From positions 1,370,072 to 1,434,071 of the forward strand of contig OY843751.1 in the NCBI GenBank assembly GCA_963693055.1: a stretch of DNA of 64,000 nucleotides, in the 5' to 3' direction. Position 1 is the stretch's first letter. Every line of letters begins with the position of its first letter. Shown piece after piece: positions 3,847-34,210 of the stretch. This DNA comes from a bacterium (GTDB lineage: Bacteria; Zhuqueibacterota; Zhuqueibacteria; Residuimicrobiales; Krinioviventaceae). Position numbers and translations under genes: made by a program. The notes below the pieces were generated by a model that searched no databases, was not told the origin of the DNA, and saw nothing but the letters and a program-made list of their open reading frames with translations.

Positions 3847-3873
3847 TTTCTTTCTCTTGTTTACTAATACTTT

Positions 3874-4987: not shown

Positions 4988-5003
4988 TTTTTATCTCCTG
5001 AAT

Positions 5004-13410: not shown

Positions 13411-13594
13411 AAGAACCTCATTTGTTTAGAATAGCTATTTATAATGACGGTTAGTTATTGGTAATTTCAAAACATAAATATCACAATTTTTATGCCAGGT
13501 TTTTTAGTTTGCGTTTCGGAGAGAAGAAAGAAAAGAGAACCCCCAAAGTCCTTTGTTTAGGGCTTTGAGGGTTGTAAAAGTTTTTTATGATTTT

Positions 13595-18074: not shown

Positions 18075-20000
18075 TTATTTAATCATCATTACTTTTTGTA
18101 TAGAGGAACAATTACCTGCCTGCAAACGCACCAGGTAGGTACCGCTGGGTGCAGCTACCCCTGAATTGGTAGATCCATCCCATTCCACCTGATATTCAGC
18201 GGCGGATTGCTGCTGATTTACCAGTGTTTTAATTTCACATCCGAGTATATCATAAACGATCAGGGAAACATGACTGTCCGTTACCAGTTGATATTTCAAT
18301 GTAGTAGACGGATTAAAGGGATTGGGATAAGCCGCAAACAATTGTGTGGTCATTGGAATTGATTGAACATCTATGGATGTTGTACCAATTTCTGTTTGAA
18401 CTCCGTCTGTACTGACTTCCATCAGACGATAGGTATAACTTGATCCACTGGTTACATTTGCATCGGTTATGCGGTAATGTGACAGGGAGGAGGTTGTGCC
18501 TTGTCCGGTCAGTTCAGAGTGGGTTTGGTAGGATGCGATCTGCTTATAATCGAAATTTTCTGTACTGCGTTCAATGATGAATCCCAGATTGTCTTTTTCG
18601 CAGGCAGTGGACCATGTCAATTCTATAGAGTCTTTATCGTATTTAGCGGTAAAGGATTGCAGCTTGACCGGTAATGCTGTGTCGCTGCCGTTTTGCCATC
18701 CCAGAAAGGGGTAACCGTCATTAATGGTCCCGGAAGGGTCAATGTCCCAAATATCCTGACTGCCATTGGTAATTTCAATACTAAAGTCCCAACCAGCATA
18801 GGTAAATGTGGAAAGCGTTTTCATTTTTTCTGTGGTTTTGGGGGAAGCAGAATTTGTATCGTTTTGTCCTGTGGTTTCAGAATCATAAAAATTTGCACTT
18901 GCTGATATAGTCGTAGCCAGGGTAATGCCACCAGTAACGCTTCCGGTAACTGTACCCTTTGCGTAGCAATAGTGAATTTCGCTTTCCCCGTATACATTAC
19001 AGGCCAGAGCGGTTATCCGGTATGTTCCGAATGTATTTCCTGTTGCATAACAATTGTTAATATCACAATTATCACAATAGCCAATCAATCCACCAATATC
19101 TGCATGGCCAGTAACCTTACCTGTTGCGAAACACTGATTGATATTCGTATCTTTTGTCCAGCCGATCAGTCCACCAAGATAGTCTTGACCACTGACCGCT
19201 CCTGTAGCAGAGCATCTGGTCACTTGGCCATGATTCGTACCTATCAATCCACCTACATTATCAGTGGTGGCATTGACGCTGCCGGAAGCGTGGCAATCTG
19301 TGATTTGCCCGTAAAAACGTCCTGCCAGGCCGCCTATACTGGTGCCATTTTGCACATTCACACTGCTGCTACAGTTACTGATGATGGCATCTACATATAC
19401 GCCACCAATTATTCCTCCGGCAAGTGCGTCAGAACAAGTAACAGTTCCGGATAAAGTACAACCGGATATAGTGGTGTTTTCATAAACAGAACCAACCAGA
19501 CCTCCCACAAATCCATAAGCAGAGATATTTAAGCTTTCCATTTTAATATTATTTAATTCAGCGTTGGTAACATCCCCAAATAAACCGGCATAATTTGACT
19601 CGGGTCTGTTTATATACAGACCCGTGATGGTGAAACCTTGACCGTCATAGGTGCCTTCAAAAGGTGATAAAATAGTGCCAATGGGGCTAAAACCGGCGTA
19701 TCCGCCGTCTCCATCGGGATTCAGGGTTGCGCTTGCAGAGGCGTCAATATTATCGGTTTGTGTAAAGTGACGTGACCAGATAGTTGATGTTGTGCTGATC
19801 CATATCAGATGGTCAAATTCAGAAATAAGATACGGATCATAATATGCACCTGTGCCGGGCGGCTGCGTACCCGCAGCCAATAAAGGGCCTGTAAATGTCA
19901 GAGTAATGCAAAATATAGACAGATATTTTTTACTTTTGAAAAATATTCTGTGGTTTGTGATAAGAAAAGAGTTGATAAAATATGATAATAAAATTTTCAT
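18075..20000 (-). CDS. Secreted GLUG-repeat protein + FN3-like module + T9SS CTD
   Basis: 641 aa. Multiple GGLVG/GGLIG/GGLAG repeats (GLUG motif, as in IgA1-protease-like and Bacteroides surface proteins); module ALPVKLQSFTAKYDKDSIELTWSTACEKDNLGFIIERS; CTD LFAAYPNPFNPSTTLKYQLVTDSHVSLIVYDILGCEIK. Confidence 0.8.
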   Translation of the reverse strand: MKILLSYFINSFLITNHRIFFKSKKYLSIFCITLTFTGPLLAAGTQPPGTGAYYDPYLISEFDHLIWISTTSTIWSRHFTQTDNIDASASATLNPDGDGGYAGFSPIGTILSPFEGTYDGQGFTITGLYINRPESNYAGLFGDVTNAELNNIKMESLNISAYGFVGGLVGSVYENTTISGCTLSGTVTCSDALAGGIIGGVYVDAIISNCSSSVNVQNGTSIGGLAGRFYGQITDCHASGSVNATTDNVGGLIGTNHGQVTRCSATGAVSGQDYLGGLIGWTKDTNINQCFATGKVTGHADIGGLIGYCDNCDINNCYATGNTFGTYRITALACNVYGESEIHYCYAKGTVTGSVTGGITLATTISASANFYDSETTGQNDTNSASPKTTEKMKTLSTFTYAGWDFSIEITNGSQDIWDIDPSGTINDGYPFLGWQNGSDTALPVKLQSFTAKYDKDSIELTWSTACEKDNLGFIIERSTENFDYKQIASYQTHSELTGQGTTSSLSHYRITDANVTSGSSYTYRLMEVSTDGVQTEIGTTSIDVQSIPMTTQLFAAYPNPFNPSTTLKYQLVTDSHVSLIVYDILGCEIKTLVNQQQSAAEYQVEWDGSTNSGVAAPSGTYLVRLQAGNCSSIQKVMMIK

Positions 20001-20146
20001 ACAACATCTCCCTTTCGTTCAAAAGGTTGTCGGTTTGTTATCTATAGCAATATCAAACGTCGAAATTGCTGGAGATGTTTGGGATTATATTCATAAATTA
20101 ATAATAATCCCCCATAAAGGCAACAATGTTTTTAGGGTTGTAGATG

Positions 20147-20770
20147 GGGGAATTTCGACGGATAGAAAAAATTCCCAGACACCGATGAGGTGCCTGGGAA
20201 TAGTAATGTTCTATATGTGAAATAGGGATGGTTTTTATGGAACCTGCGAATTTTTACCACTATTGGGTTTAACCACCAAATAGTCTGTAGCGTTAACACT
20301 GCCATTCATGTTACAGTCAGAGGGATTATAACTCGCTGATCCGCTTTGGCCTTTGACAGTGAGATAGTCGGTCGCGTTTATAATACCGCTGTTATTCGCG
20401 TCTCCACTAAACATACCGTAAATGCCGGTTTCTAACTGTGCAGCGCTGCCGCCGTAATATTTGTCATAGGGTGTTGATTCATCCACGGTAAAATTATAGG
20501 TTGTCAGTGTACCGCTTAAACTCTGTGCTGTGGCGCTCATGATTGCCAAATGATTGCGGTGACGAATGACAATGTAATAGTCGCCCGGTGCCAGACCTGT
20601 GAGGGTGAGGTTGGTTACGGTACCATCGTCCTCAGCCAGATAGCCGTCGCTGCGCAGGATATAAGAGCGGCTGTACACAGCTTCACCATCTACAGTTGAG
20701 CGTAATTCCATACAAACCCAGTCGGTAATGCCTTCGGGGATACTGCCGGCATTACGATTGTCAGAATAGA
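20147..20770. repeat. Near-identical ~0.6-kb duplicated block (copy A) covering the 3' coding end of 20235..22340 plus its terminator
   Basis: 20147-~20770 is essentially identical to 23627-~24250. The encoded C-terminal ~170 aa are nearly identical (NRNAGSIPEGITDWVCMELRSTVDGEAVYSRSY...NSGKNSQVP), as are the 88 bp downstream of the stop. Confidence 0.8.
20161..20200 (-). terminator. Rho-independent terminator of 20235..22340 (inside the duplicated block)
   Basis: Minus-strand RNA forms UUCCCAGGCACC-ucauc-GGUGUCUGGGAA (12 bp, one G.U) followed by UUUUUUCUAUC. Confidence 0.55.
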
Positions 20771-22340
20771 AAGAGGTTGCGGGAATAATGCCTGCCAGAT
20801 TTGTGCCCATATTGTGGGCGCCGCTATCATAGGGGCCTTGCAGATAGACTTTGACGGCAAGCTGGGGCGTTCCTTCGTCAGTGGTAAACGATTTTACATT
20901 GCCATAAAAAGTGCCGTAACAATTGGAACAAAAAGTGCGATGATAATAGGTGGTGTTGGGCGCAAGACTGGTCACTGTGCCTGAAAAAAAGCCAAATCCG
21001 CTGCCCATGGGTGCTTGTTCATCTGCCAGGGTAGGTGTTTTGTTGGTGGAGCTGTAACAAACACCCCGACGAAGTGTAGTGACTCCATTGTATTCATAGA
21101 CATTGCCGCCAAACTCGGCAGTGGTGGCGGTAATGCTTTCCGCGTCGTACGAAGCGATGCAGTAAGGATCAATATAATATGTATCTGAGCTGCCTTTTTT
21201 AATACCCACAATGCCGTCGTCACTGCCCACCAAGAGGTCAACTCTTCTATCGCCGTTCAGGTCGGTTTGGGCCAGAACAGATTTGTCGCCTACATCAATG
21301 TCATTCCAGTTTGTGGTTACTCTGGAAAACGATAATGATGCAATACCGCTTTGCTGATAAAGCTGAATTTGACCGTCAACATTGCCAATAAAAAACTCAT
21401 ATCTAGAGTTATTATCATAATAACAAAACATGGGTGACGGCAGCTCGCCAACGTCAATGGAATTGAAATTATCGCTGACAAGCGTAAAAGTGGTAGATGT
21501 CCCGCTGTCTTGTTGGTAATGGTAAATGGCGCCGCCCAGGTTGCCCACCAGCAGATCGAGGCGGCCATTCCGATCGAGATCGGTAAAAGTAGGTTTAGAG
21601 TACCCACCCACATCAATACCGCTCAGGGCACCGACAAGGGTAAACGACGCGGAGCGGTCGCTGTCTTGTTCAAAATGGCGCAGGGTACCGTCGTCGCGGC
21701 CCATGATCAGGTCAAGCAGGCCGTCATCATCCAGGTCTGTAACCGTGGGGAAATTACAGGTGCCTACATCAATATTGTTAAAGTAAGATGTGATGAGATT
21801 GAATGAAAACGAGTTGATCTCAGATTGTTCATATCGCGATATTCTGCCGTTTTTATTGCCTACCAGCATGTCCAGCAGGCCATCTCCATCAATGTCGGTT
21901 ATGGTGGGGGCGGCGTTTTCGCCCACGTTGATATTGGTCATGTCTGACGTTTCAAATTGTAGTGAATAACCATAGCTGCCCGTACCGGCGCGGTTGGTGG
22001 CGCTGACCCGCCAAAAATAGTAGGTACTGTTGGCGGGCAGATCAACAGCATAGTTTGTGTCTTCTATGCCGGTATATGTTCCCACAATGTCGGTAAATTG
22101 ATAATCATTCGCGATCTGAACGTTATAAGTCAGGGCATGGTCTATGTTTTCCCAAAATAAATAGGCCCGGCAAGAGAGCAGCTCAAGATTGGGATATCTG
22201 GGACCGACCAGTTCAGGCGCCGGACTTGGCGCTCTGGATGTGAGGGATACCGCTCCTGATTCGCCATTTCCCGTTTGTGCAAATGTTGTGCTGGTAAAGG
22301 CCAAAACCCATACTACCAAAAGAACAAATAATTTTTTCAT
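20235..22340 (-). CDS. Secreted FN3 + FG-GAP/beta-propeller repeat protein with dockerin-like C-terminal double calcium-binding repeat
   Basis: 701 aa with signal peptide MKKLFVLLVVWVLAFTSTTFAQ. It has an FN3 domain, repeated FG-GAP-like motifs (DIDGDGLLDMLVGN, TDLDDDGLLDLIMG, TDLDRNGRLDLLVGN), and a C-terminus GDANNSGIINATDYLTVK...DCNMNGSVNATDYLVVK (two 12-residue Ca-loop-like segments each followed by a YLxVK helix start). There is no T9SS CTD. Confidence 0.8.
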   Translation of the reverse strand: MKKLFVLLVVWVLAFTSTTFAQTGNGESGAVSLTSRAPSPAPELVGPRYPNLELLSCRAYLFWENIDHALTYNVQIANDYQFTDIVGTYTGIEDTNYAVDLPANSTYYFWRVSATNRAGTGSYGYSLQFETSDMTNINVGENAAPTITDIDGDGLLDMLVGNKNGRISRYEQSEINSFSFNLITSYFNNIDVGTCNFPTVTDLDDDGLLDLIMGRDDGTLRHFEQDSDRSASFTLVGALSGIDVGGYSKPTFTDLDRNGRLDLLVGNLGGAIYHYQQDSGTSTTFTLVSDNFNSIDVGELPSPMFCYYDNNSRYEFFIGNVDGQIQLYQQSGIASLSFSRVTTNWNDIDVGDKSVLAQTDLNGDRRVDLLVGSDDGIVGIKKGSSDTYYIDPYCIASYDAESITATTAEFGGNVYEYNGVTTLRRGVCYSSTNKTPTLADEQAPMGSGFGFFSGTVTSLAPNTTYYHRTFCSNCYGTFYGNVKSFTTDEGTPQLAVKVYLQGPYDSGAHNMGTNLAGIIPATSFYSDNRNAGSIPEGITDWVCMELRSTVDGEAVYSRSYILRSDGYLAEDDGTVTNLTLTGLAPGDYYIVIRHRNHLAIMSATAQSLSGTLTTYNFTVDESTPYDKYYGGSAAQLETGIYGMFSGDANNSGIINATDYLTVKGQSGSASYNPSDCNMNGSVNATDYLVVKPNSGKNSQVP

Positions 22341-22393
22341 GTTAACCCCTATTATAGTTGTTAATTAATAACATCTTTGTTTATGATCATTGG

Positions 22394-23332
22394 TTAATCT
22401 TTGACCAGGCGGATAGAAAATCCGTAAGTAAAACTTTGATTTGAGCGTGTAATCTCTGTATCGCCGTTGTATAATCCTCGCGTCCATGCGGCCTTTTGGG
22501 GATTCCCAGACAAAACATATTGAGTGGATGACCAAAAATCAGTTGATGATCCCAATAGGGAGCTAATTTTATCGAATCGATAACCACCTGGAAGAGCGGT
22601 AAAACGGCTTTTGTTGGTAGCCCCGGTGTTTGGGCTGTCCCAATGGGTTGTTCCTGTTTCTTTAAGTTTCCCTCCGGCCATTGTACCCCCAAGTGTATTT
22701 TGTAATGTGTTCCATTCGTCATCCGTAGGAACATGCCAGCCGTTTGGAGCTATGCTTCTGCTATCATTTACTGCATACCAATTATATAAATAACCGTATG
22801 TTTCAATAAACGTTACAGCCGATGAATAGCCATAACGTGCACCAGTACTTATGTTCTTCCAAGATGTATTATAGTCAACTTTAGGTATTTCGTCACCATT
22901 TCTGTACTGTGTTTCTTTTAAATTCTCAGCCATCCACCACTGGTCGCCAATCTTGACGGTTTTGTACACCGTGCCGTCGTTGCCGGTCATGGTGCTGAAA
23001 AAATAGTAGAGTACACACACTTTGAACTGGCTGCCACTGGTATTGGGATTGTCCGCGTAAAAGTCCCACACAATGTGCTTGTCTGTGCCCGCTGTTATGT
23101 CCACACCAAGGTCGCCGGAAAGGCTGACGCATTTCAGGTCCCATGTTGCGCCGTTGTCGTTAGAGGCTTCGACTGCAATTTCAGTATTATACCCTTGGGG
23201 ATTGCTGAAATCGTAATAGATGTCGACCATGAAATTGCCGTCTGTGCGTTGTGCCACCCGTATGTTGGAAACCTGGGCGAACAGGCAGCCGGTCAGTGAA
23301 ATCAACAATAAAGCAGTGAATAGTAATCTCAT
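22394..23332 (-). CDS. FISUMP-domain (Fibrobacter succinogenes major paralogous domain, TIGR02145-like) secreted protein/lipoprotein, tandem paralog 1
   Basis: TMTGNDGTVYKTVKIGDQWWMAENL...YGYLYNWYAV...APNGWHVPTDDEWNTLQNTLGG...KLKETG...FTALPGGYR...FWSST...AWTRGLYNG...GFSIRLVKD. Lipobox-like LTGC after the signal peptide. Start placed at the second ATG (GAGGAG RBS). Confidence 0.8.
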   Translation of the reverse strand: MRLLFTALLLISLTGCLFAQVSNIRVAQRTDGNFMVDIYYDFSNPQGYNTEIAVEASNDNGATWDLKCVSLSGDLGVDITAGTDKHIVWDFYADNPNTSGSQFKVCVLYYFFSTMTGNDGTVYKTVKIGDQWWMAENLKETQYRNGDEIPKVDYNTSWKNISTGARYGYSSAVTFIETYGYLYNWYAVNDSRSIAPNGWHVPTDDEWNTLQNTLGGTMAGGKLKETGTTHWDSPNTGATNKSRFTALPGGYRFDKISSLLGSSTDFWSSTQYVLSGNPQKAAWTRGLYNGDTEITRSNQSFTYGFSIRLVKD

Positions 23333-23543
23333 TGTTCTCCTCATTCGTTATGTAAAAACCAATGCTTAACTCTAAATACCCGGGCATTGCTATTCCATAC
23401 TTTTTGTAGGAAATGCTTGTTACGGTATCTGCATCTGCATATTTTTATTCCCTCAAAAAGAACAGGCACTGCTGTAGTATTCAGAACCTAATAAAATGTC
23501 AATGTTGGAAAAGTGTTAGATTGAATTTAAGCAATTTCGCAAT

Positions 23544-23594
23544 ACAGTACCAAGCACACATGTCGCAAAAACCAGTACATATGTCGCATTTGAA
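23544..23594 (-). promoter_or_regulatory. Candidate operator: two direct copies of ACA(C/T)ATGTCGCA spaced 20 bp, upstream of FISUMP gene 22394..23332
   Basis: ACAGTACCAAGCACACATGTCGCAAAAACCAGTACATATGTCGCATTTG; the same 50-bp element recurs at 30054..30103 upstream of another FISUMP paralog. The core ACATATGT is palindromic. Confidence 0.4.
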
Positions 23595-23626
23595 TCGATT
23601 TTTAATGCTTTGGGGGTTGGAGCTGG

Positions 23627-24250
23627 TGGGAATTTCGACGGATAGAAAAAATTCCCAGACACCGATGAGGTGCCTGGGAATAGTAATGTTCTATATGTGA
23701 AATAGGGATGGTTTTTATGGAACCTGCGAATTTTTACCACTATTGGGTTTAACCACCAAATAGTCTGTAGCGTTAACACTGCCATTCATGTTACAGTCAG
23801 AGGGATTATAACTCGCTGATCCGCTTTGGCCTTTGACAGTGAGATAGTCGGTCGCGTTTATAATACCGCTGTTATTCGCGTCTCCACTAAACATACCGTA
23901 AATGCCGGTATCTAACTGTGCAGCGCTGCCGCCGTAATATTTGTCATAGGGTGTTGATTCATCCACGGTAAAATTATAGGTTGTCAGTGTACCGCTTAAA
24001 CTCTGCGCTGTGGCGCTCATGATTGCTAAATGGTTGCGGTGACGAATGACAATGTAATAGTCGCCCGGGGCCAAGCCAGTGAGGGTGAGGTTGGTTACTG
24101 AACCATCGTCCTCAGCCAGATAGCCGTCGCTGCGCAGGAGATAAGAGCGGCTGTACACAGCTTCACCATCTACAGTTGAGCGTAATTCCATACAAACCCA
24201 GTCGGTAATGCCTTCGGGGATACTGCCGGCATTACGATTGTCGGCATGGG
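23627..24250. repeat. Near-identical ~0.6-kb duplicated block (copy B) covering the 3' coding end of 23715..25802 plus its terminator
   Basis: See copy A (20147..20770); identity extends through the terminator hairpin and 3' flank. Confidence 0.8.
23641..23680 (-). terminator. Rho-independent terminator of 23715..25802 (duplicate of 20161..20200)
   Basis: Sequence identical to the hairpin and U-run at 20161..20200. Confidence 0.55.
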
Positions 24251-25802
24251 GAGAAGTTGCTGGTATTTTACCGGCCAAATTCATACGCATGGCGTGCGCG
24301 GCGGTATTATATGTGCCTTGCAGAAAGACTTTGACGGCAAGTCGGGGGTCGCCTTCATCGGTGGTAAATGATCTTGTTGTTCCATAAAAGGTGCCGTAAC
24401 AATTGGACCCAAACGTACGGTAATAATAGGTAGTATTGGGAGCAAGCCCGGTCACAATGTCTGAAAAACTTCCTGACGAACTGCCCATTGAGACCATGTT
24501 GTCTGTCATGACGGGCGGATTGGTGGTACTGTAAATGACACCGCGTCGCTGCACCGGTACGCCATTATGATTAGAAAAACGACCACCCAGTTCAGCGGAT
24601 GATTCGGTTATGTTTTCCGCCGCGTCCGTTGACATGGAAACATCAATACGATAAGTATCTCCTTTTTTAATACCAACAATGCCATCACCACCACCGACCA
24701 ACAGGTCAACGCGTTTATTACCGTCCAGATCGGTTTGAGCCAGTATTGATCTTTCGCCAACATCAATGTCATTCCAATCCGTGGTTGCACTGGAAAACGA
24801 TAATGATGCAATACCGCTTTGCTGATAAAGCTGGATTTTACCGTTTTCAGCACCTATAAAAAGCTCTAAATTATTTCCCGCATCGTAATAACAAAACATG
24901 GGTGAAGAGTCACCGCTGACATCAATAGAATTGAAATTATCACTAACCAAGGTAAAGGACAATGAATACTTGGCGTCCTGTTCGTAATGACGAATGGTGC
25001 CCTCCAAGGTGCCCACCAGCAGGTCAAAGTAGCCATCCAAATCCAGGTCAGTAAAAGTGGGTTTAGACCAAGAGCCCGCATCGATGCCGCTCAAAGCGCC
25101 AATATAGGTAAAGGATGCTGAACGCTCGCTGTCTTGTTCATAATGTTGCAGGGTGCCGTCGCCGCGGCCTATGAGCAGGTCAAGCAAGCCGTCGCCATCC
25201 AGATCAGCAACTGTGGGGGAACTACCAACACCGACATCAATATCGCTAAAATTTGACGTAATGAGGTTTAATGAAAACGAGTTGACAGCCGTTTGTTCAT
25301 AACGGGTCAGTGTACCGTCATGATTGCCCACCAGCATATCTAACAGACCGTCGGCGTCAATATCGGTCATGGTTGGGGCGGCGTAACTGCCCACGTTGAT
25401 GCTGGTCATATCTGATGTTTCAAATTGCAGTATATAACTATATTGGCCTGTGCCGGCGCGGTTGGTGGCACTGACCCGCCAGTGATAGGTGGTACTGTTG
25501 GCGGGCAGATCGGCAGCATACTCTGTTTCTGTTATGCCGGTATATGTTCCTATTATATTGTCAAATTCCCAATCAGTTGCGATTTCTAAGTTATAGGTTT
25601 GGACATGGTCCATGTTTTCCCAAAATAGATAGGCCCGGCAAGATAGCAGGTCTGTATTGGGGTATCTGGGACCGACCAACTCTGGCGAACCGGGAGGCAT
25701 GGAAGTCAGAGACACTGTAGAAGATTCGACGCTACCATTAGCTGTTAAACCGCATACGGCAAATAACAAAAGCATTAAAATTATCATGTTTAAATTTTTC
25801 AT
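23715..25802 (-). CDS. Secreted FN3 + FG-GAP/beta-propeller repeat protein with dockerin-like C-terminus (paralog of 20235..22340)
   Basis: Start moved to MKNLNMIILMLLLFAVCGLTANG at 25802 (AAAGGA RBS); the track ORF extends spuriously to 25964. FG-GAP motifs DIDADGLLDMLVGN, ADLDGDGLLDLLIG, TDLDLDGYFDLLVG; the C-terminal ~170 aa are identical to the paralog. Confidence 0.8.
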   Translation of the reverse strand: MKNLNMIILMLLLFAVCGLTANGSVESSTVSLTSMPPGSPELVGPRYPNTDLLSCRAYLFWENMDHVQTYNLEIATDWEFDNIIGTYTGITETEYAADLPANSTTYHWRVSATNRAGTGQYSYILQFETSDMTSINVGSYAAPTMTDIDADGLLDMLVGNHDGTLTRYEQTAVNSFSLNLITSNFSDIDVGVGSSPTVADLDGDGLLDLLIGRGDGTLQHYEQDSERSASFTYIGALSGIDAGSWSKPTFTDLDLDGYFDLLVGTLEGTIRHYEQDAKYSLSFTLVSDNFNSIDVSGDSSPMFCYYDAGNNLELFIGAENGKIQLYQQSGIASLSFSSATTDWNDIDVGERSILAQTDLDGNKRVDLLVGGGDGIVGIKKGDTYRIDVSMSTDAAENITESSAELGGRFSNHNGVPVQRRGVIYSTTNPPVMTDNMVSMGSSSGSFSDIVTGLAPNTTYYYRTFGSNCYGTFYGTTRSFTTDEGDPRLAVKVFLQGTYNTAAHAMRMNLAGKIPATSPHADNRNAGSIPEGITDWVCMELRSTVDGEAVYSRSYLLRSDGYLAEDDGSVTNLTLTGLAPGDYYIVIRHRNHLAIMSATAQSLSGTLTTYNFTVDESTPYDKYYGGSAAQLDTGIYGMFSGDANNSGIINATDYLTVKGQSGSASYNPSDCNMNGSVNATDYLVVKPNSGKNSQVP

Positions 25803-25855
25803 ACTATCCTTTCTACTTGATTTATACAGGTCTTCAGGAAACCCTTTTTGTAAAA

Positions 25856-26827
25856 TTAATCTTTGACCAACCGTACTGAAAATCCATACCCGGCAATTGC
25901 AGACCGTCTCTGGATACCGGATTCGTAATAAAAAAGCATGCGTATTGTATTTGTAGATGCCCAATATCCGGTTTCATAGCCCAAAGGGGGATAGGAATTC
26001 ATTATACCTCCATCCCAAGCACTTTTGCGAAAAGACCCTGGTGTGGCAGAAAAATGCCAGATGTCAGAAGAACCATATCCATCCATGTACCATCCTCTTG
26101 TAGTTTTTAATTGATTCCCTTGATCCGTGCCGCGATATACACCTCCCTTATTGGCTTCTTCTTCACTCATGCCCATAAACATTTCCAGTTCTATCCAGTC
26201 CTCATCCGTGGAAAGGTGCCACCCGGGAGGGGCAATGTTTCTGCTATCCGCACAAGCATACATATTATATACATAACCATAGCTTTCAGCATAACTTTCA
26301 TCATTGTCATATACACCTCGTGCTCCAATTTCATTCTCGTTACAATCTTGCCATCCCGCAATATCATCCGGGTAAACAATGTCAGAGCCGTCACGGTATT
26401 TTGTTTCTCTTAAATTTTCACGCATCCACCACTGGTTGCCAATTTTAATGGTCTTGTATATCCTGTCGTCATTGCCGGTCATGGTCCCATATAAAGTATA
26501 CAAAATTTGAATTTTGAGCTGGCTGCCGCTGGTATTGGGATGGTCGGCGTAATAGTCCCATACGATGTGTTTGTCTGTTCCGGGTGTAGTCACATATCCT
26601 TTATCACCCGAGAGGCTGGAACATTTTAAATTCCACGTAACGCCATTATCTTCTGAAGCTTTGATTCCGATATCTGCAGCTTCACATACCGGATCAACAA
26701 TGTCATACCATATGTCAACCATAAAAGTGCCATCGGTGCGTTGTTGCACGCGCAGGTTGGTGACCCCTTGCGCCAACAGGCAGCCAACGGTCAAGAGTAA
26801 TGTTGTTACTGTTGTTGAAAATTTCAT
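25856..26827 (-). CDS. FISUMP-domain secreted lipoprotein, tandem paralog 2
   Basis: MKFSTTVTTLLLTVGCLLAQ (lipobox), then an N-terminal Ig-like domain and a FISUMP domain (IYKTIKIGNQWWMRENL...YGYVYNMYA...APPGWHLSTDEDWIELE...GFSVRLVKD). Start at 26827 with a GAGGGA RBS. Confidence 0.8.
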   Translation of the reverse strand: MKFSTTVTTLLLTVGCLLAQGVTNLRVQQRTDGTFMVDIWYDIVDPVCEAADIGIKASEDNGVTWNLKCSSLSGDKGYVTTPGTDKHIVWDYYADHPNTSGSQLKIQILYTLYGTMTGNDDRIYKTIKIGNQWWMRENLRETKYRDGSDIVYPDDIAGWQDCNENEIGARGVYDNDESYAESYGYVYNMYACADSRNIAPPGWHLSTDEDWIELEMFMGMSEEEANKGGVYRGTDQGNQLKTTRGWYMDGYGSSDIWHFSATPGSFRKSAWDGGIMNSYPPLGYETGYWASTNTIRMLFYYESGIQRRSAIAGYGFSVRLVKD

Positions 26828-26934
26828 GATATCCCTCATTTCTGTATCCGGGTTAGCTCTTTAATCTCGCACACACCGGAAATTGACTCTACACTTTTAA
26901 TAATTGTAACTGTACATGACGCGCCACAAATGAA

Positions 26935-27873
26935 TTAATCTTTAATTAAACGCAGAGAACATCCACATTCCCTGTACTCTTCATCAAATATGACATAAGT
27001 AGCAGCACTGGCTAATAGCATAATATCCGCGAAGAAAGAACGAGATGATGTTGAGGCCCATAGGGATGATGCATTTTCAAGATTTCGAAAATATCCTGAT
27101 AAAGGAGCATCCAAACGGACAAACCGGTCTCCCGCGCCAAGGGCTGTAAATCCGCTTGAATTTGTTGCATTAACATTATAAGAGTTCCAATGCATGGTAC
27201 CCTGTTCTTTAAGTTTGGAACAGGCGTCATTAAAAAGATAGTTTTTTAGCGCATTCCACTCTCCCTTTGAAGGCACATGCCATCCCTCGGGCGCTATTTG
27301 ACGGGCATCATCAACCACAAACCAGTTGTAAAGGTAACCATAAACATTGCCAAGCGAGTCCGAATTGTTATAAGAACAGCGTGCCCCGGTAGACAATCCA
27401 TACCAATTATAATTATTTTTCTCTACAGGTATCGGGTCGCCATTTCTGTATAATGTCTCTTTTAAATTCTCCGCCATCCAAACCTGATTGCCGATTATAA
27501 CGGTTTTATACAGTTTTCCGTCATTGCCCATCATATAGTCATCTCTGGCAGTTAAACGTACTTTGTATTGATTGCCTGAGACATTGGGATTGTCTGCATA
27601 AAAATCCCACACAATATGTTTGTCCGTACCCGGGGTGATATTTCCACCCACATCACCCGTCAGGTGTGTGCACATTAAATCCCATGTCGCTCCGTTATCT
27701 GCCGAGGCTTCAACCAATATGGCAAGCATATTCTCCCCAGAATAAGCTAAATTGTACCAGATATCCGTTATAAATGTGCCGTCGGTGCGCTGCTGCACGC
27801 GCACGTTTGAGACCTGGGCGTACAGGCAGCCAACGGTCAAGAATAATGTTGTTACCGTTGTTAAAAATTTCAT
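26935..27873 (-). CDS. FISUMP-domain secreted lipoprotein, tandem paralog 3
   Basis: MKFLTTVTTLFLTVGCLYAQ, then LYKTVIIGNQVWMAENLKETLYRNGDPIP...YGYLYNWFVV...APEGWHVPSKGEWNALKNYL...GFTALGAGDR...CGCSLRLIKD. Start at 27873 with a GAGGAA RBS. Its upstream intergenic region is about 85% identical to that of paralog 2. Confidence 0.8.
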   Translation of the reverse strand: MKFLTTVTTLFLTVGCLYAQVSNVRVQQRTDGTFITDIWYNLAYSGENMLAILVEASADNGATWDLMCTHLTGDVGGNITPGTDKHIVWDFYADNPNVSGNQYKVRLTARDDYMMGNDGKLYKTVIIGNQVWMAENLKETLYRNGDPIPVEKNNYNWYGLSTGARCSYNNSDSLGNVYGYLYNWFVVDDARQIAPEGWHVPSKGEWNALKNYLFNDACSKLKEQGTMHWNSYNVNATNSSGFTALGAGDRFVRLDAPLSGYFRNLENASSLWASTSSRSFFADIMLLASAATYVIFDEEYRECGCSLRLIKD

Positions 27874-27980
27874 GTTATTCCTCATTGCTGTATCCAGGTC
27901 AGAGCTTTGATCTTGCACACACCGGTAATTGACCATACACTTTCAATAATTGTAACTATATATGACGCACCACAAATGAA

Positions 27981-28916
27981 TTAATCTTTTATTAAACGTA
28001 TTGTACATCCGTGCTTTTTATTAATCAAATAATTATACATAGTATCTGTATTGTAACTCATTGTTAAGCTCCCACCATTAATGCCGTTAACATCTTGTTG
28101 GGCTAACCATATCCAGGCGTCCTCCCATATGTCATTAAAATTACCATCGTCATTTCGTCTTCCGGCCGCTATTGCTGTAAAGCCGCTTTCATTTGTGGCG
28201 GCGGTATTGGGATAATCCCAATGAGCATATCCGGTTTCTTTCATTTTTCCACCTTTCGAACCCCCTAAAAAATCATATAAATCACTAAAATCATAATAAG
28301 TTGGAACATGCCATCCGGAAGGCGCAAGATTACCGGTTGCGACAACATACCAATTATATAAATAACCATAGCTGTTTGTGTAATTTTCATTATTATTATA
28401 CACACACCGGGCGCCGGTTTCCAAAGTGGACCATGTGGAACTGCTGGCTACAACCGGTATACTACTAATACCGTTTCTGTATTTTGTTTCCCTTAAATTT
28501 TCAGCCATCCACCATTGGTTACCAATCTTGACGGTTTTGTACACTTTACCGTCGTTACCGGTCATGGTGCTGTTATAAAAAAACAAAAGACGGACCTTGT
28601 ACTGGTTACCACTGGTGTTAGGATGGTCGGCGTAAAAGTCCCATTCAATGTGCTTGTCCGTTCCCGCGGTAATTCCTTCACCCACATCGCCGGTGAGGCT
28701 AGAGCAAGACAGGTTCCATGATGCTCCATTGTCATGAGAAGCTTCTATTATTATTTCGGCGGTTTTTGTATAAGAATCTCCCTCAAAACCCAGATCATAC
28801 CAGATATCAACCACAAAATTGCCATCTGTGCGTTGAACCACCCGCACGTTGGAGACCTGAGCGTACAGGCCGCCGGTCATAAGGAGGAATGTCATTATTG
28901 TAATTTGAAATCTCAT
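27981..28916 (-). CDS. FISUMP-domain secreted protein, tandem paralog 4
   Basis: VYKTVKIGNQWWMAENLRETKYRNG...YGYLYNWYVV...APSGWHVPTYYDFSDLYDFLGG...GFTAIAAGRR...GCTIRLIKD. Start at the second ATG (GAGGTA RBS). Confidence 0.8.
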   Translation of the reverse strand: MRFQITIMTFLLMTGGLYAQVSNVRVVQRTDGNFVVDIWYDLGFEGDSYTKTAEIIIEASHDNGASWNLSCSSLTGDVGEGITAGTDKHIEWDFYADHPNTSGNQYKVRLLFFYNSTMTGNDGKVYKTVKIGNQWWMAENLRETKYRNGISSIPVVASSSTWSTLETGARCVYNNNENYTNSYGYLYNWYVVATGNLAPSGWHVPTYYDFSDLYDFLGGSKGGKMKETGYAHWDYPNTAATNESGFTAIAAGRRNDDGNFNDIWEDAWIWLAQQDVNGINGGSLTMSYNTDTMYNYLINKKHGCTIRLIKD

Positions 28917-28950
28917 TCTGTACCTCATTATTTATACATTAGCTCAACAG

Positions 28951-29926
28951 TTAGTTCTTTACTAGACAGACCGAATGTCCTTTTCCTTTTTCGTCATAAA
29001 GACGGTAAATATTTAAATTATAACAGAGTATGTAACGTTTCAATGCTTCATTTTCGCCATAGGATGAAGCAGACCAAAAATAGGCACGGATTCTCTTGTC
29101 AATAAAAATGCCTTGAATGTTGGAACAACAACCGCCCGGTGTCGCTGTAAAAAGGCTTACGGCAAAATTAACATCATTTTTTGAAACATCATCTTGTAAC
29201 AAATTTGCACGATCCGCCAGTTTACTACCTTCATCATCTCCGTAATCCAGATTTATTTTTGTCATCTACACTCATACCCAATGCGCGTTCCAGTTCCTTC
29301 CAGTCGGCATCTGTGTGAACATGCCAACCGTTTGGAAAAAAATCATGCGGATTTTCCAGATCCACAACTTACCAATTGTATAAATAACCAAAAGTTGAAG
29401 CATTATCTGGATTATTATCAAAATAACAATAAGCGCCAATATTAATATTAGTCCAATCCTGATTGTTTACTGTGGTTGCTATGGTTGACCCATCGTTATA
29501 ATGCTTTCCCCTTAAATTTTTTGCCATCCACCATTGGTTACCAATTTTTATTGTTGGGTACACATTAGCATCGTAATCCCTCATGGTGTCGGTTAATAAA
29601 AGAATTACACGTATTTTAAACTGATTACCGTTAGTGTTAGGGTTGTTTGTGTAAAAATCCCAAACAATGTGTTTGTCCGTACCCGCTGTGATATCCTCAC
29701 CAGCGTCGCTGGTAATGCTGGAACAATTCAGATCCCAGGTTGTGCCATTGTCGTCAGAGGCTTGAATAATTATTTCGTTATCACATCCTTCGGAATTATT
29801 GAAATCGTACCAGATATCAACTATAAAAGTGCCGTCTGTGCGTTGTTGAACTCTCATGTTGGAAACCTGGGTGAATAGACTGCCGGTTATATTAATTATT
29901 AAAAATATAGTATATAGTGATCTCAT
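28951..29926 (-). pseudogene. Disrupted fifth FISUMP paralog (premature stop after YGYLYNW plus at least two frameshifts)
   Basis: ORF 29369..30067 encodes the N-terminal domain plus the first half of FISUMP (PTIKIGNQWWMAKNL...FGYLYNW*). The continuation FPNGWHVHTDADWKELERALGMSV is in a second frame, and ORF 28951..29265 (FTATPGG...FWSASSYGENEA...SVCLVKN) is in a third. Homopolymer runs A7/T7 lie at the junction. Confidence 0.6.
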
Positions 29927-30053
29927 AAAAATTCTTGTATATTTGAATTGTCTTACAAATAGGCAAGATTCCTGGAAAGATTTAGACGGCATGTTGTAAA
30001 AAAAATTTTTACAACGATTTATTCTTGTTTTAAAATTTACAAAAATAAACAAA

Positions 30054-30103
30054 ACAGTACCAAGCACATATGTCGCAAAAACCAGTACATATGTCGCATT
30101 TGG
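30054..30103 (-). promoter_or_regulatory. Second copy of the ACATATGTCGCA x2 operator-like element, upstream of the disrupted FISUMP paralog and just downstream of the hybrid kinase gene
   Basis: ACAGTACCAAGCACATATGTCGCAAAAACCAGTACATATGTCGCATTTG matches 23544..23594 except for one base. Confidence 0.4.
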
Positions 30104-30121
30104 AATTTTTAGAAGTGTTAT

Positions 30122-32926
30122 TTAAAAAGTGTATTGGGAAGGAGATTTGCCAAACCGTTTTTTAAAGCAGCGTCTGAAATAGTCAGGGCTGCCGAACCCG
30201 GTTTGGTAGGCAATTTCTGATATGGTGGCGGTTTTACTTTCTAACATTTGAATAGCATGTTTTAGCCGGATTGAATGGATAAAATCAACAACAGTTTGGT
30301 TGGTAAGCGCATGGATCTTGCGGTGCAATTGTGAGCGAGACAAGGCCATCTTACTGCTTAACCAGTCTACACTCAGATCGGGATTGTTTAAATGCATTTC
30401 AATCAAATCCGCCGCACGCTTTAAAAAAACCTCATCGGCAGGCATGACCGCAATATCTTTAAGGGGGGTTGTGATTTGTTTGTTAAATCGTTGGCGCAGT
30501 TTTCGGCGCTGATCGATAAGGTTTTTGATCCGTACTTTGAGCTCGTCCGGTTCAAAAGGTTTGGTAAGATAGTCGTCAGCACCCAAGGTAAGGCCTTCAA
30601 TTTTGCTGGCACTGTCTGAACGGGCGGTAAGTAACACAACAGGTATATGGCTGGTGCGTTCATCGGTTTTCAATTTTTCACAGAACTGGTACCCGTCCAT
30701 GTTGGGCATCATTACATCACTGATTACCAAGTCGGGAATGCAATTGATTGCCTGTAGCAAACCGTCTTTGCCATCGACTGCTTCCAGTATTTCATATTCA
30801 TCTTCAATAATCTCATGAATATAGGCGCGCAGCTCTGAATGGTCTTCGGTAATGAGAATGATGGGGGCATCTTTTTTCTTTGAATGTCGAACAGGAACAG
30901 GCTTGTCATCCTTGTCATGTATATCCACAGGTGGTTGTTTGGTACTCTTGAAATTCAAAGAGGGTACTGGTGCAAAATCTTGTTCTGAAAAATGATCTTT
31001 TCCCAAAGGCAGATGTACAGTAAATGTGCTGCCCTTGTCTATTTCACTGGATACTGAAATTTTACCACGATGCAGAAGCACAAGTTCGCGAGCCAGTGCC
31101 AGCCCAATTCCGCTGCCTTGCTGGTTTTGTGGGTATCCGTTTTCAACCTGGTAAAACCGATCGAAAATATGTTCAAGGTGCTCATCTGGAATCCCTGGAC
31201 CGGTGTCTGATATGCTGATTTCCAGGGAATCGTTTTGAGAAACCGAAACTTTGATCTCTCCACCGGTGGGTGTGAATTTAACAGCATTTGATAAAAGATT
31301 GCCTAGTACTTTGTCGATTTTATCCCGATCAATCCAGACATAGGCAGCATTTAAACCGGTTTCATATATCAAACTGATTTGATGATGAACTACATGAGAT
31401 TCAAATGTCTGACATACACCTTTAATTAGTGGCCAAATATCTGTTTTTTTAACTTTTAATTCCATACGTCCTGATTCAATGCGGGAAAGGTCAAGCAGCT
31501 CATTCACCAGGTTTAAAAGTCGGCGACCATTCTTTAACTGTAAACGTGACCTCTTTCGTATGTTTTTATCTTGTGATTCATTCAGAATCTGTTGTGCTGT
31601 ACCCAGAATCAGGGTGAGGGGGGTACGGAATTCATGGGAAATATTGGCAAAAAATCGGGATTTCATTTTATCAATTTCTTTAAACTTTTCCGATTCGATG
31701 ACTTTTTTCTGAGCAATCTCTTTTTGGCGATTGTTTTCAATATACCTGTCAATGATGATCAATGTAAGACAGATAACAAAACCCAGGGTGCCGAAATGAA
31801 TCAGTCTGATATTTGATGATATATTGATCACATAATGCAGAAAAAGTTCAAGACCACCAAATAAATAAAAAATAATCAATCCTATAAAAAGTAACTTGAT
31901 TTCGCGCTTACCTTTGGTTGAACTCTTGATCACCAGAATAAAATTGGTTGTGGCGCTTGTGGAAGTAATTATAAAAAATAATTGATAAAACAGATCCGTA
32001 AAACGGTTCTTGATAATAATCATTGACAATATTGATAGTAATAGAAAAAACAGGTGGCCCTTCCAAAAACGTCTGACGACAGGTTTGAATTTTTTAGTGA
32101 TAATCTGTTCCGTGAGATACAAGCCGCCAATGGGTGAAGACATTAATGAGAAAAAATCCAGTAAAAAAAAGAGTCGCGGAGCATAGACCATTGTTTGAAG
32201 AAAGTAAGAATTGCTTCCTGTAAAGATACCAATTGAAATTAAAAATGTAGCAATTCCAATCAATAGATTGTTTCTCTGCACAAATAAATAAATAAATAAT
32301 AGTACAAAGCCAAGAATAATAAAAAGCGGGGCAAAGATGATTTCATCTATATCTTTGATAAATAGTTTTTTTAAAATAATGTCTGCCGGGGCAAGCCAGA
32401 TGGGTTGATTTAAACCTATTGTAGATTTATCGGACCAGATTCGAAAACAAAGAATACCTTTGGAATAATCATCGGGAAGACGTACAAGCATCATATGCCA
32501 GCCAACAAACAAATCTTTGTTTGTTGTGAAATCACCAAATTGATAGATTTGTTGGTCATTTAGGTAAACCTGAACAATTTGCCTTACACTGGGGAAAAAT
32601 AACGCAGGGTCTGAGTCTTTAGTATCCGGAAGCTGTGTTCGTATCCACAAACTATTATATCCCGTATTGGGGATGTCGTCAAAGTTTTCTACGGATATCC
32701 ATTTGTTTGAATCAATACCGTCATCCAACCAGATTAAATGTCCGTTTGCATCTTTAGGAGAATCCCCAATACGATACTGCCAACCGTTCTCAATATTATA
32801 TATCTCGTTTGATGTATTGGTATTATAGTTAATGATATTCGTTTCTTTGCCGAAACAAAGCGTTGAATATAATATAATTACAAACAAAATATATGTTAAG
32901 ACCAATGGTCGATTAGTCAGAATCAC
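30122..32926 (-). CDS. Hybrid two-component system sensor histidine kinase/response regulator with 7TMR-DISM sensor and C-terminal AraC-type HTH
   Basis: 934 aa. It has an N-terminal extracytoplasmic 7TMR-DISMED2-like domain plus a 7-TM region, HisKA (FFANISHEFRTPLTLILG), HATPase_c (GSGIGLALAREL), a receiver (DLVISDVMMPNMDGYQFCEKLK) and an AraC HTH (QTGFGSPDYFRRCFKKRFGKSPSQY). Confidence 0.85.
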   Translation of the reverse strand: MILTNRPLVLTYILFVIILYSTLCFGKETNIINYNTNTSNEIYNIENGWQYRIGDSPKDANGHLIWLDDGIDSNKWISVENFDDIPNTGYNSLWIRTQLPDTKDSDPALFFPSVRQIVQVYLNDQQIYQFGDFTTNKDLFVGWHMMLVRLPDDYSKGILCFRIWSDKSTIGLNQPIWLAPADIILKKLFIKDIDEIIFAPLFIILGFVLLFIYLFVQRNNLLIGIATFLISIGIFTGSNSYFLQTMVYAPRLFFLLDFFSLMSSPIGGLYLTEQIITKKFKPVVRRFWKGHLFFLLLSILSMIIIKNRFTDLFYQLFFIITSTSATTNFILVIKSSTKGKREIKLLFIGLIIFYLFGGLELFLHYVINISSNIRLIHFGTLGFVICLTLIIIDRYIENNRQKEIAQKKVIESEKFKEIDKMKSRFFANISHEFRTPLTLILGTAQQILNESQDKNIRKRSRLQLKNGRRLLNLVNELLDLSRIESGRMELKVKKTDIWPLIKGVCQTFESHVVHHQISLIYETGLNAAYVWIDRDKIDKVLGNLLSNAVKFTPTGGEIKVSVSQNDSLEISISDTGPGIPDEHLEHIFDRFYQVENGYPQNQQGSGIGLALARELVLLHRGKISVSSEIDKGSTFTVHLPLGKDHFSEQDFAPVPSLNFKSTKQPPVDIHDKDDKPVPVRHSKKKDAPIILITEDHSELRAYIHEIIEDEYEILEAVDGKDGLLQAINCIPDLVISDVMMPNMDGYQFCEKLKTDERTSHIPVVLLTARSDSASKIEGLTLGADDYLTKPFEPDELKVRIKNLIDQRRKLRQRFNKQITTPLKDIAVMPADEVFLKRAADLIEMHLNNPDLSVDWLSSKMALSRSQLHRKIHALTNQTVVDFIHSIRLKHAIQMLESKTATISEIAYQTGFGSPDYFRRCFKKRFGKSPSQYTF

Positions 32927-33112
32927 TTTGTTCCTCAGACGATTACTAATGGAAGTATATTTTATCTATATAAAATATAATAATTATTATAAAAAACATA
33001 ATTTTTTTACGAATTAATTTTAAAAAAACGCTGACAAGCATTTCTGCCTTGCCAGCGTTAAATGTGATAAATGACAGGCAACAAATACCTATCTGAGAAT
33101 ATTTGATTCGAA

Positions 33113-34210
33113 TTATTTCATAAACAATACCTTTTGTACCTGGGAAGTATTTCCAGTCTGCATGCGCACCAGGTAGGTTCCGCTGGGTGCCATTACACCG
33201 GCATCGGTTGAGCCGTCCCATTGGACCGAGTATTGCCCGGCGGTCTGGTACTGATCGCTGAGCAGTTTGATCTGACGGCCTAATACGTCATATACTGCCA
33301 GAGTTACATGGCTGTCTTTTGCCAGATTGTATTTTATATTGGTTGACGGATTAAAAGGATTGGGGTACGCCGTGAATAGCTGTGTGGTTGAGGGGATGGC
33401 TGCTTTAACGGATGTTGTGCCGATCTCTGATTTTTCTCCATTTATATCTATTTCTGACAAACGGTAATCGTAATCTGCTCCTGCAGATATAGTATTGTCT
33501 ATAAAATCGTATTGAGATGGGGAAGAGGTAGTACCTTGTCCGGTCAGTTCTGCATCGTGTTTATAAGATGCAATTTGCCGCCAGCCGGTATTTTCGGATT
33601 TACGCTCAATGATAAATCCCAGATTGTCGGTTTCGCTTACGGTGGTCCATTCTAATTCGACTGTATTGTTGCTGTGGGGCGCGGAAAAGGAGGTCAGTTC
33701 CACGGGCAACGAAGCATCACCTAAAATTAAATCGTCAAACGCAAAGCCACTTAATTCTTCGCTTTTTGTAACAGTAAATGATGTTACATTTGTCCAATTA
33801 AGCGTGACTGTTTGACCCGTTGCTTTAGCAATTGTATCATTTACCGGTGAATTTGATCCACCCGTAGGAGTATATGTCCAGGTACCATCATAACTTCCGC
33901 TTGCGTTAACGGCATATATTGTAAGGATATCTACAGATTCCGAAAAAGTAAAAGTAATTGTCTGAATATTGGTTACGGATGCCATGACAACATTTCCGGA
34001 AGCTCCACCAAAACCAGCAGATGCAAAAAGTTGTATATAACGTCCCCCACCGGCATCCGCAGTAGTTACAGTAACAGTAATATCACTAACCGTTTCCTGA
34101 ACAATAGTTGCCTGAGATTCACCAATTTCTGTTGCGGTTTCCCAGGTAAAAGTTTGTGCAAAAAGTATGAAAGGTAGTAAGAGAAAAAGTGTCAATAACA
34201 ATTTTTTCAT
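33113..34210 (-). CDS. Secreted protein with FN3-like module + T9SS CTD
   Basis: 365 aa with signal MKKLLLTLFLLLPFILFAQ; module ASLPVELTSFSAPHSNNTVELEWTTVSETDNLGFIIERKSENTGW; CTD LFTAYPNPFNPSTNIKYNLAKDSHVTLAVYDVLGRQIK...GTYLVRMQTGNTSQVQKVLFMK. Confidence 0.8.
   Translation of the reverse strand: MKKLLLTLFLLLPFILFAQTFTWETATEIGESQATIVQETVSDITVTVTTADAGGGRYIQLFASAGFGGASGNVVMASVTNIQTITFTFSESVDILTIYAVNASGSYDGTWTYTPTGGSNSPVNDTIAKATGQTVTLNWTNVTSFTVTKSEELSGFAFDDLILGDASLPVELTSFSAPHSNNTVELEWTTVSETDNLGFIIERKSENTGWRQIASYKHDAELTGQGTTSSPSQYDFIDNTISAGADYDYRLSEIDINGEKSEIGTTSVKAAIPSTTQLFTAYPNPFNPSTNIKYNLAKDSHVTLAVYDVLGRQIKLLSDQYQTAGQYSVQWDGSTDAGVMAPSGTYLVRMQTGNTSQVQKVLFMK

Follow-up and report, generated by a model that had tools for sequence, protein, structure and literature searches.

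A tandem array of FISUMP genes between a hybrid kinase/AraC-type regulator and dockerin-bearing FG-GAP genes, with operator-like boxes kept in related genomes

A 64,000-nucleotide stretch of contig OY843751.1 (assembly GCA_963693055.1, positions 1,370,072 to 1,434,071; hereafter the window) carries an array of genes for proteins with the Fibrobacter succinogenes major paralogous (FISUMP) domain, accompanied by a gene for a hybrid sensor kinase with an AraC-type output and by two genes for FG-GAP proteins with a dockerin-like tail. In the direction of minus-strand transcription the order is the kinase gene, FISUMP copies 5, 4, 3 and 2, FG-GAP-B, FISUMP copy 1, FG-GAP-A and a GLUG gene with a type IX secretion system (T9SS) tail (18075–20000). 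The first-pass annotation, which a model had made from the DNA letters, described five consecutive FISUMP genes on the minus strand; there are indeed five, all on that strand, but the FG-GAP gene at 23715–25802 splits copy 1 from copies 2–5. The FISUMP array is real and of a known family, and its link to the adjoining regulator is better supported than in that first reading. FISUMP families reach 17–119 copies per Fibrobacter genome; they are multi-copy and extracytoplasmic, and their function has never been demonstrated (PMC4704652).

Exactly five FISUMP copies were found in the window by tblastn, namely copy 1 (22394–23344, 316 aa), copy 2 (25856–26839, 327 aa), copy 3 (26935–27936), copy 4 (27981–28928, 315 aa) and the pseudogene copy 5 (28951–29926), all on the minus strand. 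Copies 1–4 scored 86–112 bits on TIGR02145 (112.1, 86.0, 103.2 and 107.2 bits in numerical order; cutoff 41.65) and 123–145 bits on PF09603 (123.1 for copy 4; cutoff 33.9), which places the family assignment far above the curated thresholds. The best database match of copy 1, P0001, is encoded on a 6.5-Mb contig; it is 100% identical and its start corresponds to position 23332. For copy 3 the alignment makes 27885 or 27876 the likely true start. The other intact copies are 50–54% identical to copy 1. The proposal that copies 2 and 3 share their upstream sequence through segmental duplication was borne out, the regions 26769–26964 and 27815–28010 being 86% identical over 196 nt. The one copy described as decayed is copy 5, whose reading frame is broken by an in-frame TAA at 29369–29371, directly 3' of the conserved YLYNW motif, and then, about 100 nt past this stop, by a frameshift near 29265. 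Both halves of the FISUMP model remain recognisable in it: the N-terminal and C-terminal pieces score 31.9 and 22.1 bits on TIGR02145 (below the NCBIfam cutoff), and the N-terminal piece reaches 45.3 bits on Pfam. Decay of array members is common, since damaged copies also lie in the arrays of two related loci (L001 at 9256–9960 and 13127–14008; L007 at 3465–4061), one lacking the N-terminal domain, one truncated N-terminally and one truncated C-terminally.

The kinase gene (30122–32926, minus strand) lies directly upstream of the array on the same strand. Its 934-aa product is laid out as a signal or transmembrane segment, an ectodomain of about 170 aa, seven transmembrane helices, and HisKA, HATPase, receiver (REC) and AraC-type helix-turn-helix domains. 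Pfam scores were 57.9 bits for HisKA, 110.2 for HATPase_c, 90.9 for Response_reg and 72.9 for HTH_18, with HTH_AraC also matched, while 7TMR-DISM_7TM (PF07695) reached 29.9 bits, which is borderline against its cutoff of 29. The translation contains seven hydrophobic segments between about residues 196 and 395 and has both phospho-acceptors in place, the H-box reading SHEFRTPL and the receiver Asp lying in DLVISDVMMP. Of the earlier description of this gene, the 7TMR-DISM hybrid kinase with an AraC output stood (its seven-helix module as a borderline match), but the carbohydrate-sensing 7TMR-DISMED2 domain did not; the ectodomain had no Pfam match at E ≤ 10, DISMED2 included, and DISMED2 is also absent from the precomputed Pfam lists of the orthologues. 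A word-indexed protein search with residues 1–412 returned no matches despite the 83–90% identical orthologues in L001 and L002, which is probably an artefact of low-complexity transmembrane words filling the candidate list.

Upstream of the array lies one of two occurrences of a 69-nt element, which is found directly past the kinase stop and directly past the first terminator with 87% identity between the two places. Its core is a direct repeat with a period of 21 bp, TGCGACATATGT-N9-TGCGACAT(A/G)TGT. Operator-like box 1, TGCGACATATGT-N9-TGCGACATATGT (30066–30098, minus strand), starts 24 nt past the kinase stop, and 2 nt to its 3' side stands a sigma-70-like promoter, TTGGTA-N18-TAAATT (30034–30063, minus strand), about 110 nt before the ATG of copy 5. 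Box 2, the direct repeat of the second shared element, reads TGCGACATATGT-N9-TGCGACATGTGT (23556–23588, minus strand) and precedes another promoter TTGGTA-N18-TAAATT (23524–23553, minus strand), which is followed by a leader of about 190 nt. The consensus box, TGCGACAWWTGT-N9-TGCGACATRTGT, abuts a promoter of the form TTGKTA-N18-TAWAWT, and this layout is that of an AraC class II activator site.

The boxes and terminators divide the array into two units. Unit 1 runs from box 1 through the dead copy 5, copies 4, 3 and 2 and FG-GAP-B to an intrinsic terminator with a 13-bp stem and a T-run (23651–23681, minus strand), and unit 2 runs from box 2 through copy 1 and FG-GAP-A to an identical terminator (20171–20201, minus strand). 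Intergenic gaps measure 22–107 nt. Strong minus-strand terminators with 13-bp stems occur only just after each FG-GAP gene, a third with an 11-bp stem follows the GLUG gene, and the terminator scan found none between the kinase gene and copy 5. Generic scans for sigma-70 promoters and terminators performed at about chance level overall, and only these three terminators with stems of 11–13 bp were used. The leader ahead of copy 1 (23345–23523, minus strand) is 86–92% identical to the leader in L002 (9800–9988), a level of conservation equal to that of the best coding parts. The leader folds no better than shuffled sequences (z = −1.3), and Rfam gave no matches in the window.

The order of kinase, box, 1–12 FISUMP genes and FG-GAP/dockerin gene is kept in four other assemblies, with kinase identities of 61–90%. 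The cassette of CAXXMD01 (L002/L020) has a 90% identical kinase and a single FISUMP gene; that of CAXXFV01 (L007) has an 87% identical kinase with three intact and one truncated FISUMP gene; L001 has an 83% identical kinase, then three FISUMP genes, a T9SS gene, a second box and nine further FISUMP genes; and L030 has a 61% identical kinase and three FISUMP genes. Orthologues of FG-GAP-A in L002, L001 and L030 are 79%, 69% and 75% identical, and the FG-GAP protein of L007 69%. A box of the same sequence, in the same position and with the same promoter geometry, is present in L001, L002, L007 and L030, in L001 also before the second FISUMP group, and it starts about 10–35 nt from the kinase stop in all cassette loci. 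Promoter elements equivalent to TTGKTA-N18-TAWAWT occur in seven aligned loci. Class II geometry, with two direct half-sites about 21 bp apart next to the −35 element, is kept in seven box instances from five loci. Because L001, L002 and L030 were retrieved by protein look-up and not by the box pattern, their boxes are independent confirmations. The suggestion that the kinase/AraC protein is a dedicated regulator of the array thus gains support from the gene order kept in four other assemblies and from the box and promoter that follow the kinase stop.

The kinase/AraC protein could instead be a mere neighbour that regulates other genes, such as T9SS cargo, with the box as an unrelated promoter element. 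The window is full of secreted-protein genes needing regulation, FISUMP genes of distant relatives have no such adjoining kinase, and in L012 and L013 the genes that follow the box are unrelated ones (NnrU-like and AMP-binding). However, five loci retain this adjacency although their kinases are down to 61% identical and their copy numbers vary from 1 to 12, the box keeps its short distance from the kinase stop and the direct-repeat geometry expected of AraC-type proteins, and the L012 box again stands directly 3' of a kinase paralogue. We therefore regard a chance neighbour as very unlikely.

Box-like sequences elsewhere were surveyed by scanning 596 Gb of genomes with the box pattern, which returned 22 stretches. 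In CAXXMD01, the one relative genome scanned whole, the pattern occurs three times: in the cassette, upstream of an FG-GAP paralogue (L008) and beside a 41% identical kinase paralogue (L005). On a Calditrichia chromosome (L012) a variant box lies immediately 3' of a kinase paralogue of 42% identity. Most of the other matches, outside Calditrichia, proved to be tandem repeats of 21 nt or repeats within coding sequence and were not considered further. In metagenome-assembled genomes of Bacteroidota, 21-nt units with the core TGCGACAnnTGTC are repeated in tandem between genes (L004 at about 1400–1700, L014 at about 5100–5300, L016 at about 6000–6200, L021 at about 5450–5560 and L023 at about 4380–4520). 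A double half-site lies 0.1–1.4 kb from a kinase-REC-AraC homologue in L003 (Rhodothermaceae; 1770–1802), L012 (Calditrichia) and L021 (Tannerella), which hints that the operator type is widely shared.

The domain structure of the FISUMP proteins was examined by modelling. The full-length AlphaFold model of copy 1, with a predicted local distance difference test (pLDDT) score of 90, consists of a signal helix, a β-sandwich (residues 24–120) that holds an Asp-box, SxDxGxTW, and an α/β domain. The β-sandwich, referred to here as the handle, agrees with the N-terminal Ig-like domain proposed at first pass; the α/β domain is referred to as the head. Foldseek searches with the two-domain model gave mostly weak Ig-like matches, and because these swamped the result the head was modelled alone (pLDDT 92). 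Its best match in the PDB is the C-terminal domain of Legionella Lcl (8q4e; probability 0.80, with a weak E = 0.029), followed by the Bacteroides fimbrial protein 4eps and then by many snake-venom and immune C-type lectin-like domains, all weak. Pfam Lcl_C was weakly matched by 15 of 30 family members (best E = 2e-5). The expectation of a lectin-like fold is to this extent weakly supported. The Lcl domain is a C-type-lectin-like glycosaminoglycan binder without canonical Ca2+ or sugar motifs (PMC11162425).

Searches of the PDB with phmmer and profiles found no relative of the FISUMP domain, giving only Asp-box matches of the N-terminal domain to sialidases. The viral library gave matches of the head to long phage proteins (878 and 1026 aa) annotated with the same domain, in each case at the C-terminal end (TM scores of 0.82 and 0.62). 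The C-terminal end of a long phage protein is a typical place for receptor-binding modules.

The FG-GAP genes are the constant companions of the array. FG-GAP-B (23715–25802, minus strand, 695 aa) is a β-propeller protein that also contains fn3-like modules and ends in a dockerin-like double F-hand (FG-GAP_3 55.5 bits, Dockerin_1 26.1 bits), and FG-GAP-A (20235–22340, minus strand, 701 aa) is 75% identical to it. Both proteins have FG-GAP/VCBS repeats and a C-terminal module that scores 26.2 (A) and 26.1 (B) bits on Dockerin_1 (cutoff 22.9). This module matches the solved type I dockerin 3ul4_B at E = 0.005, and the translation shows both F-hand repeats, GDANNSGIINATDYL and SDCNMNGSVNATDYL. 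A tract at 20148–20750 is 96–100% identical to 23628–24230; it covers the dockerin-coding 3' part of the two genes (about 515 nt) and 87 nt downstream, terminator included. Since the remainder of the genes is only about 75% identical, comparison of the two sequences indicates recent gene conversion or partial re-duplication of the 3' ends.

This pairing invites the idea of an assembly in the style of cohesin and dockerin, in which the N-terminal domain or the FISUMP domain docks on the dockerin-like tail of the FG-GAP protein, giving a scaffold that displays interchangeable heads. Every array ends in an FG-GAP gene that passes Dockerin_1 with both F-hands, the dockerin-coding 3' ends have been kept nearly identical and the FISUMP handles have been homogenised too, and many longer homologues fuse Fib_succ_major to Dockerin_1. 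A passage in a later paper credits Warnecke (2007) with having once proposed TIGR02145 as a cohesin analogue (cited in PMC4704652), an idea made somewhat more interesting by the dockerin-bearing gene with which the FISUMP genes are constantly paired. However, Foldseek matches of the full model (through its N-terminal domain) to cohesin modules were non-significant, with probabilities of 0.06–0.15, and dockerin-like modules are common in non-cellulosomal proteins. Docking of this kind, which would refine rather than replace the interpretation of the array as a set of binding proteins, is unlikely.

The signal peptides of the FISUMP proteins had been annotated as lipoprotein-type, which is usual among the FISUMP family (PMC5758913). 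This did not survive closer inspection: copies 1–3 contain a candidate lipobox Cys, which copies 4 (GGLYAQ) and 5 (GSLFTQ) lack. Conservation of this Cys is likewise missing across 54 aligned subfamily members, in which nearly all signal peptides close with Gln, as part of a conserved A/S-Q. Because of this pattern the signal peptides appear to fit cleavage by signal peptidase I exposing Gln, and not lipoprotein processing. Exposure of Gln by signal peptidase I is the Q-rule of Bacteroidetes, which according to the paper that describes it does not extend to the entire FCB group (PMC5837995); the bacterium of the window is probably Calditrichia-like. A/S-Q ends are also seen in FG-GAP-A (TFAQTG) and in the gene at 33113–34210 (LFAQTF).

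A further possibility is that the FISUMP proteins are periplasmic enzymes, or factors that modify enzymes, close to the formylglycine-generating (FGE-sulfatase) branch of the C-type-lectin-like fold. The motif GWHVPT..EW..L resembles those of FGE-sulfatase and DUF1566 proteins, no surface-anchoring signal was found in the FISUMP proteins, and one KSB1 homologue has an FGE-sulfatase gene nearby. On the other side, Pfam FGE-sulfatase was unmatched even at E ≤ 1, and the proteins lack a conserved catalytic pair of Cys residues, the only Cys that is nearly invariant in the head having been substituted in copies 1 and 2. Enzymes do not typically show hypervariability or such flux in copy number, and the nearest solved and viral matches are binding modules. 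An enzymatic role is thus extremely unlikely.

Comparison of the copies separates the two domains further. Among 21 cassette-borne copies the mean identity of handles is 67% (up to 97% within one array) and that of heads 46%. Two pairs in L001 are mosaics: the first and fifth copies (L001_1 and L001_5) have heads that are 100% identical on handles that are 84% identical, and the second and sixth (L001_2 and L001_6) have 97% identical handles with 47% identical heads. At the nucleotide level, copy 1 and the single copy of L002 are 82–92% identical in leader and handle, 30–60% in the head and 63–93% in the FG-GAP genes that follow. The closest homologue of copy 1 lies in L030, a locus with a 61% identical kinase and with flanking genes that range in synonymous divergence (dS) from 0.6 to saturation. 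Between these two FISUMP genes, codons 1–78 have a dS of 1.39, and codons 79–312 a dS of 0.085 and a nonsynonymous divergence (dN) of 0.094, a difference between the parts that is significant (Fisher p = 1.7e-4). Judged by these divergences, a head segment is recently exchanged between lineages in this one case. The 37 amino-acid replacements of the young segment are clustered (dispersion 2.26, permutation p < 1e-4) and form three patches; the largest patch takes in the last ~30 residues ahead of the conserved C-terminus. The head has therefore diversified by tandem duplication, recombination at the domain boundary, segment exchange between lineages and clustered replacements, while the handle and the partner gene have been kept uniform.

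Diversity of this kind could also be produced by a diversity-generating retroelement (DGR) acting on the heads, with the reverse transcriptase and template repeat elsewhere in the genome and adenine-directed mutagenic retrohoming as the mechanism. Fib_succ_major/DUF1566 domains are a recognised class of DGR variable proteins, CLec2, that accounts for 14% of DGRs (PMC5758913). The replacements between copy 1 and its L030 homologue fall mostly in the last ~110 nt, the expected place of a variable region, and mostly at codon positions 1 and 2. Yet third codon positions vary as well, two variation clusters lie further upstream and include indels, the 3' ends of the paralogues are too different for a single template, and neither an open reading frame resembling a reverse transcriptase nor a template-like second copy of the 3' end was present in the 64 kb window or the related loci. 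It is therefore highly improbable that the heads are DGR targets.

The array stands in a region rich in T9SS cargo. At least eight minus-strand genes of the window share a C-terminal region of about 200 aa, 55–66% identical, that ends in FlgD_ig and a T9SS sorting domain (2509–3846, 5886–7061, 7185–8050, 8496–11114, 11386–13410, 13595–15418, 18075–20000 and 33113–34210); the copy at 7185–8050 appears to be frameshifted, as tblastn matched it in two pieces. Three adjacent small genes of 175–200 aa (3874–5531, minus strand) occupy the position that three phage-tail Collar-domain genes hold in L002 (19643–20966).

On the evidence above, we interpret the whole cassette as an inducible, diversified ligand-binding repertoire under one sensor, with a probability of roughly 0.55. 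The kinase protein would sense an extracytoplasmic cue through its ectodomain and seven-helix module, autophosphorylate, hand the phosphate to its own receiver and so activate its own AraC-type domain. Two regulator subunits would then bind the two 12-bp direct repeats next to the −35 element and activate transcription in the manner of a class II AraC/XylS activator. The products would leave the cytoplasm through Sec and signal peptidase I, cut before the conserved Gln. Each FISUMP protein would combine the conserved handle with a ligand-binding head of C-type-lectin-like fold, the ligand most likely being a glycan or other surface polymer, and the FG-GAP propeller with its dockerin-like tail would be an obligate partner. 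As the handle and partner are uniform and the head is diversified, the array would supply a set of binding specificities that can be expanded (relatives have 1 to 12 copies) and in which spent copies decay. The regulatory half of this proposal draws on conserved anatomy, and the binding function is suggested by the weak fold similarity of the models and by what is known of related domains.

Several observations weigh against this interpretation. The matches of the head to solved lectin-like folds are weak (E > 0.01, TM scores of 0.3–0.46), and the link between regulator and box is argued from comparative anatomy. The FISUMP proteins lack both a T9SS sorting domain and a conserved lipobox, which leaves their arrival at the surface unexplained, and they could stay periplasmic. 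In the exchanged segment dN/dS comes to about 1.1, which does not exceed 1 significantly (binomial p = 0.47). That the head loops are under positive selection is thus plausible but unproven, and relaxed constraint or patchy gene conversion could account for the replacements instead. The cassette is also clade-specific, since distant subfamily members (L025–L029, from Calditrichaeota GCA_013112635.1, KSB1 and others) lie among T9SS cargo without an adjacent kinase or FG-GAP gene. A search of the JGI metagenome collection turned up no orthologous kinase, and on its contigs the box-plus-promoter pattern was unmatched. The kinase matches there were distant relatives resembling hybrid two-component systems (HTCS), at ≤45% identity and over the cytoplasmic part only, none of them near a FISUMP gene, an FG-GAP gene or a convincing box. 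For both reasons the cassette, though conserved, is confined to a narrow clade, which probably lies within Calditrichota.

A bolder proposal is that the cassette represents a DGR-independent variable-lectin system, with a constant handle, possibly docked on the dockerin-like tail of the FG-GAP protein, and heads that are renewed by amplification, boundary recombination and import under one sensor and one operator. We put this forward tentatively, as an unlikely extension of the repertoire described above. If true, it would be a bacterial surface-recognition repertoire (for particles, prey, phage decoys or kin) whose evolution proceeds through cassette exchange and not through retro-mutagenesis. 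FISUMP proteins matter more broadly as one of the largest paralogous families in Fibrobacterota and Bacteroidota, and as known DGR targets for which no function has yet been shown. The locus supplies a compact, conserved context for them, with one regulator, one operator and one constant partner, together with a clear contrast between the conserved handle and the head, which evolves fast, and evidence that head segments move between lineages. This pattern suggests that diversification of a lectin fold is possible without a retroelement.

Set beside known systems, the cassette architecture, the operator and the split between handle and head appear to be new details and not a new kind of system. 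The domain is the same as in the FISUMP families of Fibrobacter and Bacteroides, and the scores here lie well over the curated cutoffs. The subfamily of the window differs from them in its fixed layout of an Asp-box β-sandwich followed by the FISUMP domain, in the lack of a conserved lipoprotein Cys, and in its arrangement as tandem operons behind a dedicated-looking regulator and ahead of an FG-GAP/dockerin gene. DGR-diversified CLec2 proteins, such as LdtA of Legionella, belong to the same domain superfamily and likewise vary towards the C-terminus of the fold. Unlike in those proteins, no reverse transcriptase or template repeat was found nearby, and diversity arises through duplication, recombination and exchange. 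The Lcl_C/DUF1566 domain (8q4e) is the best solved structural match of the head, with a weak sequence match and a C-type-lectin-like fold. The similarity is weak (E = 0.03, TM scores of 0.32–0.46), however, and the adhesin Lcl forms a trimer on a collagen stalk and has a head that is highly conserved, whereas the head described here is hypervariable and has no evident trimerisation element.

The regulatory half also has well-known counterparts. The HTCS proteins of Bacteroides (e.g., BT1754) similarly unite kinase, receiver and AraC helix-turn-helix in one membrane protein whose target operon adjoins it. They differ in the sensor, which is a periplasmic Y_Y_Y/propeller in Bacteroides and a seven-helix module with a small ectodomain here, and in their targets, which here are not SusC/SusD-type loci; no SusC or SusD domains occur among the genes from 18075 to 34210. 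The 21-bp-period direct repeats abutting a −35 element resemble the class II activator sites of AraC/XylS proteins. RetS and LadS of Pseudomonas are 7TMR-DISM hybrid kinases with a receiver domain, and the kinase of the window shares with them the succession of an ectodomain, the seven-helix 7TMR-DISM module and a hybrid kinase with a receiver. It departs from RetS and LadS in that a DISMED2 ectodomain is not detectable and in that it carries a DNA-binding output of its own.

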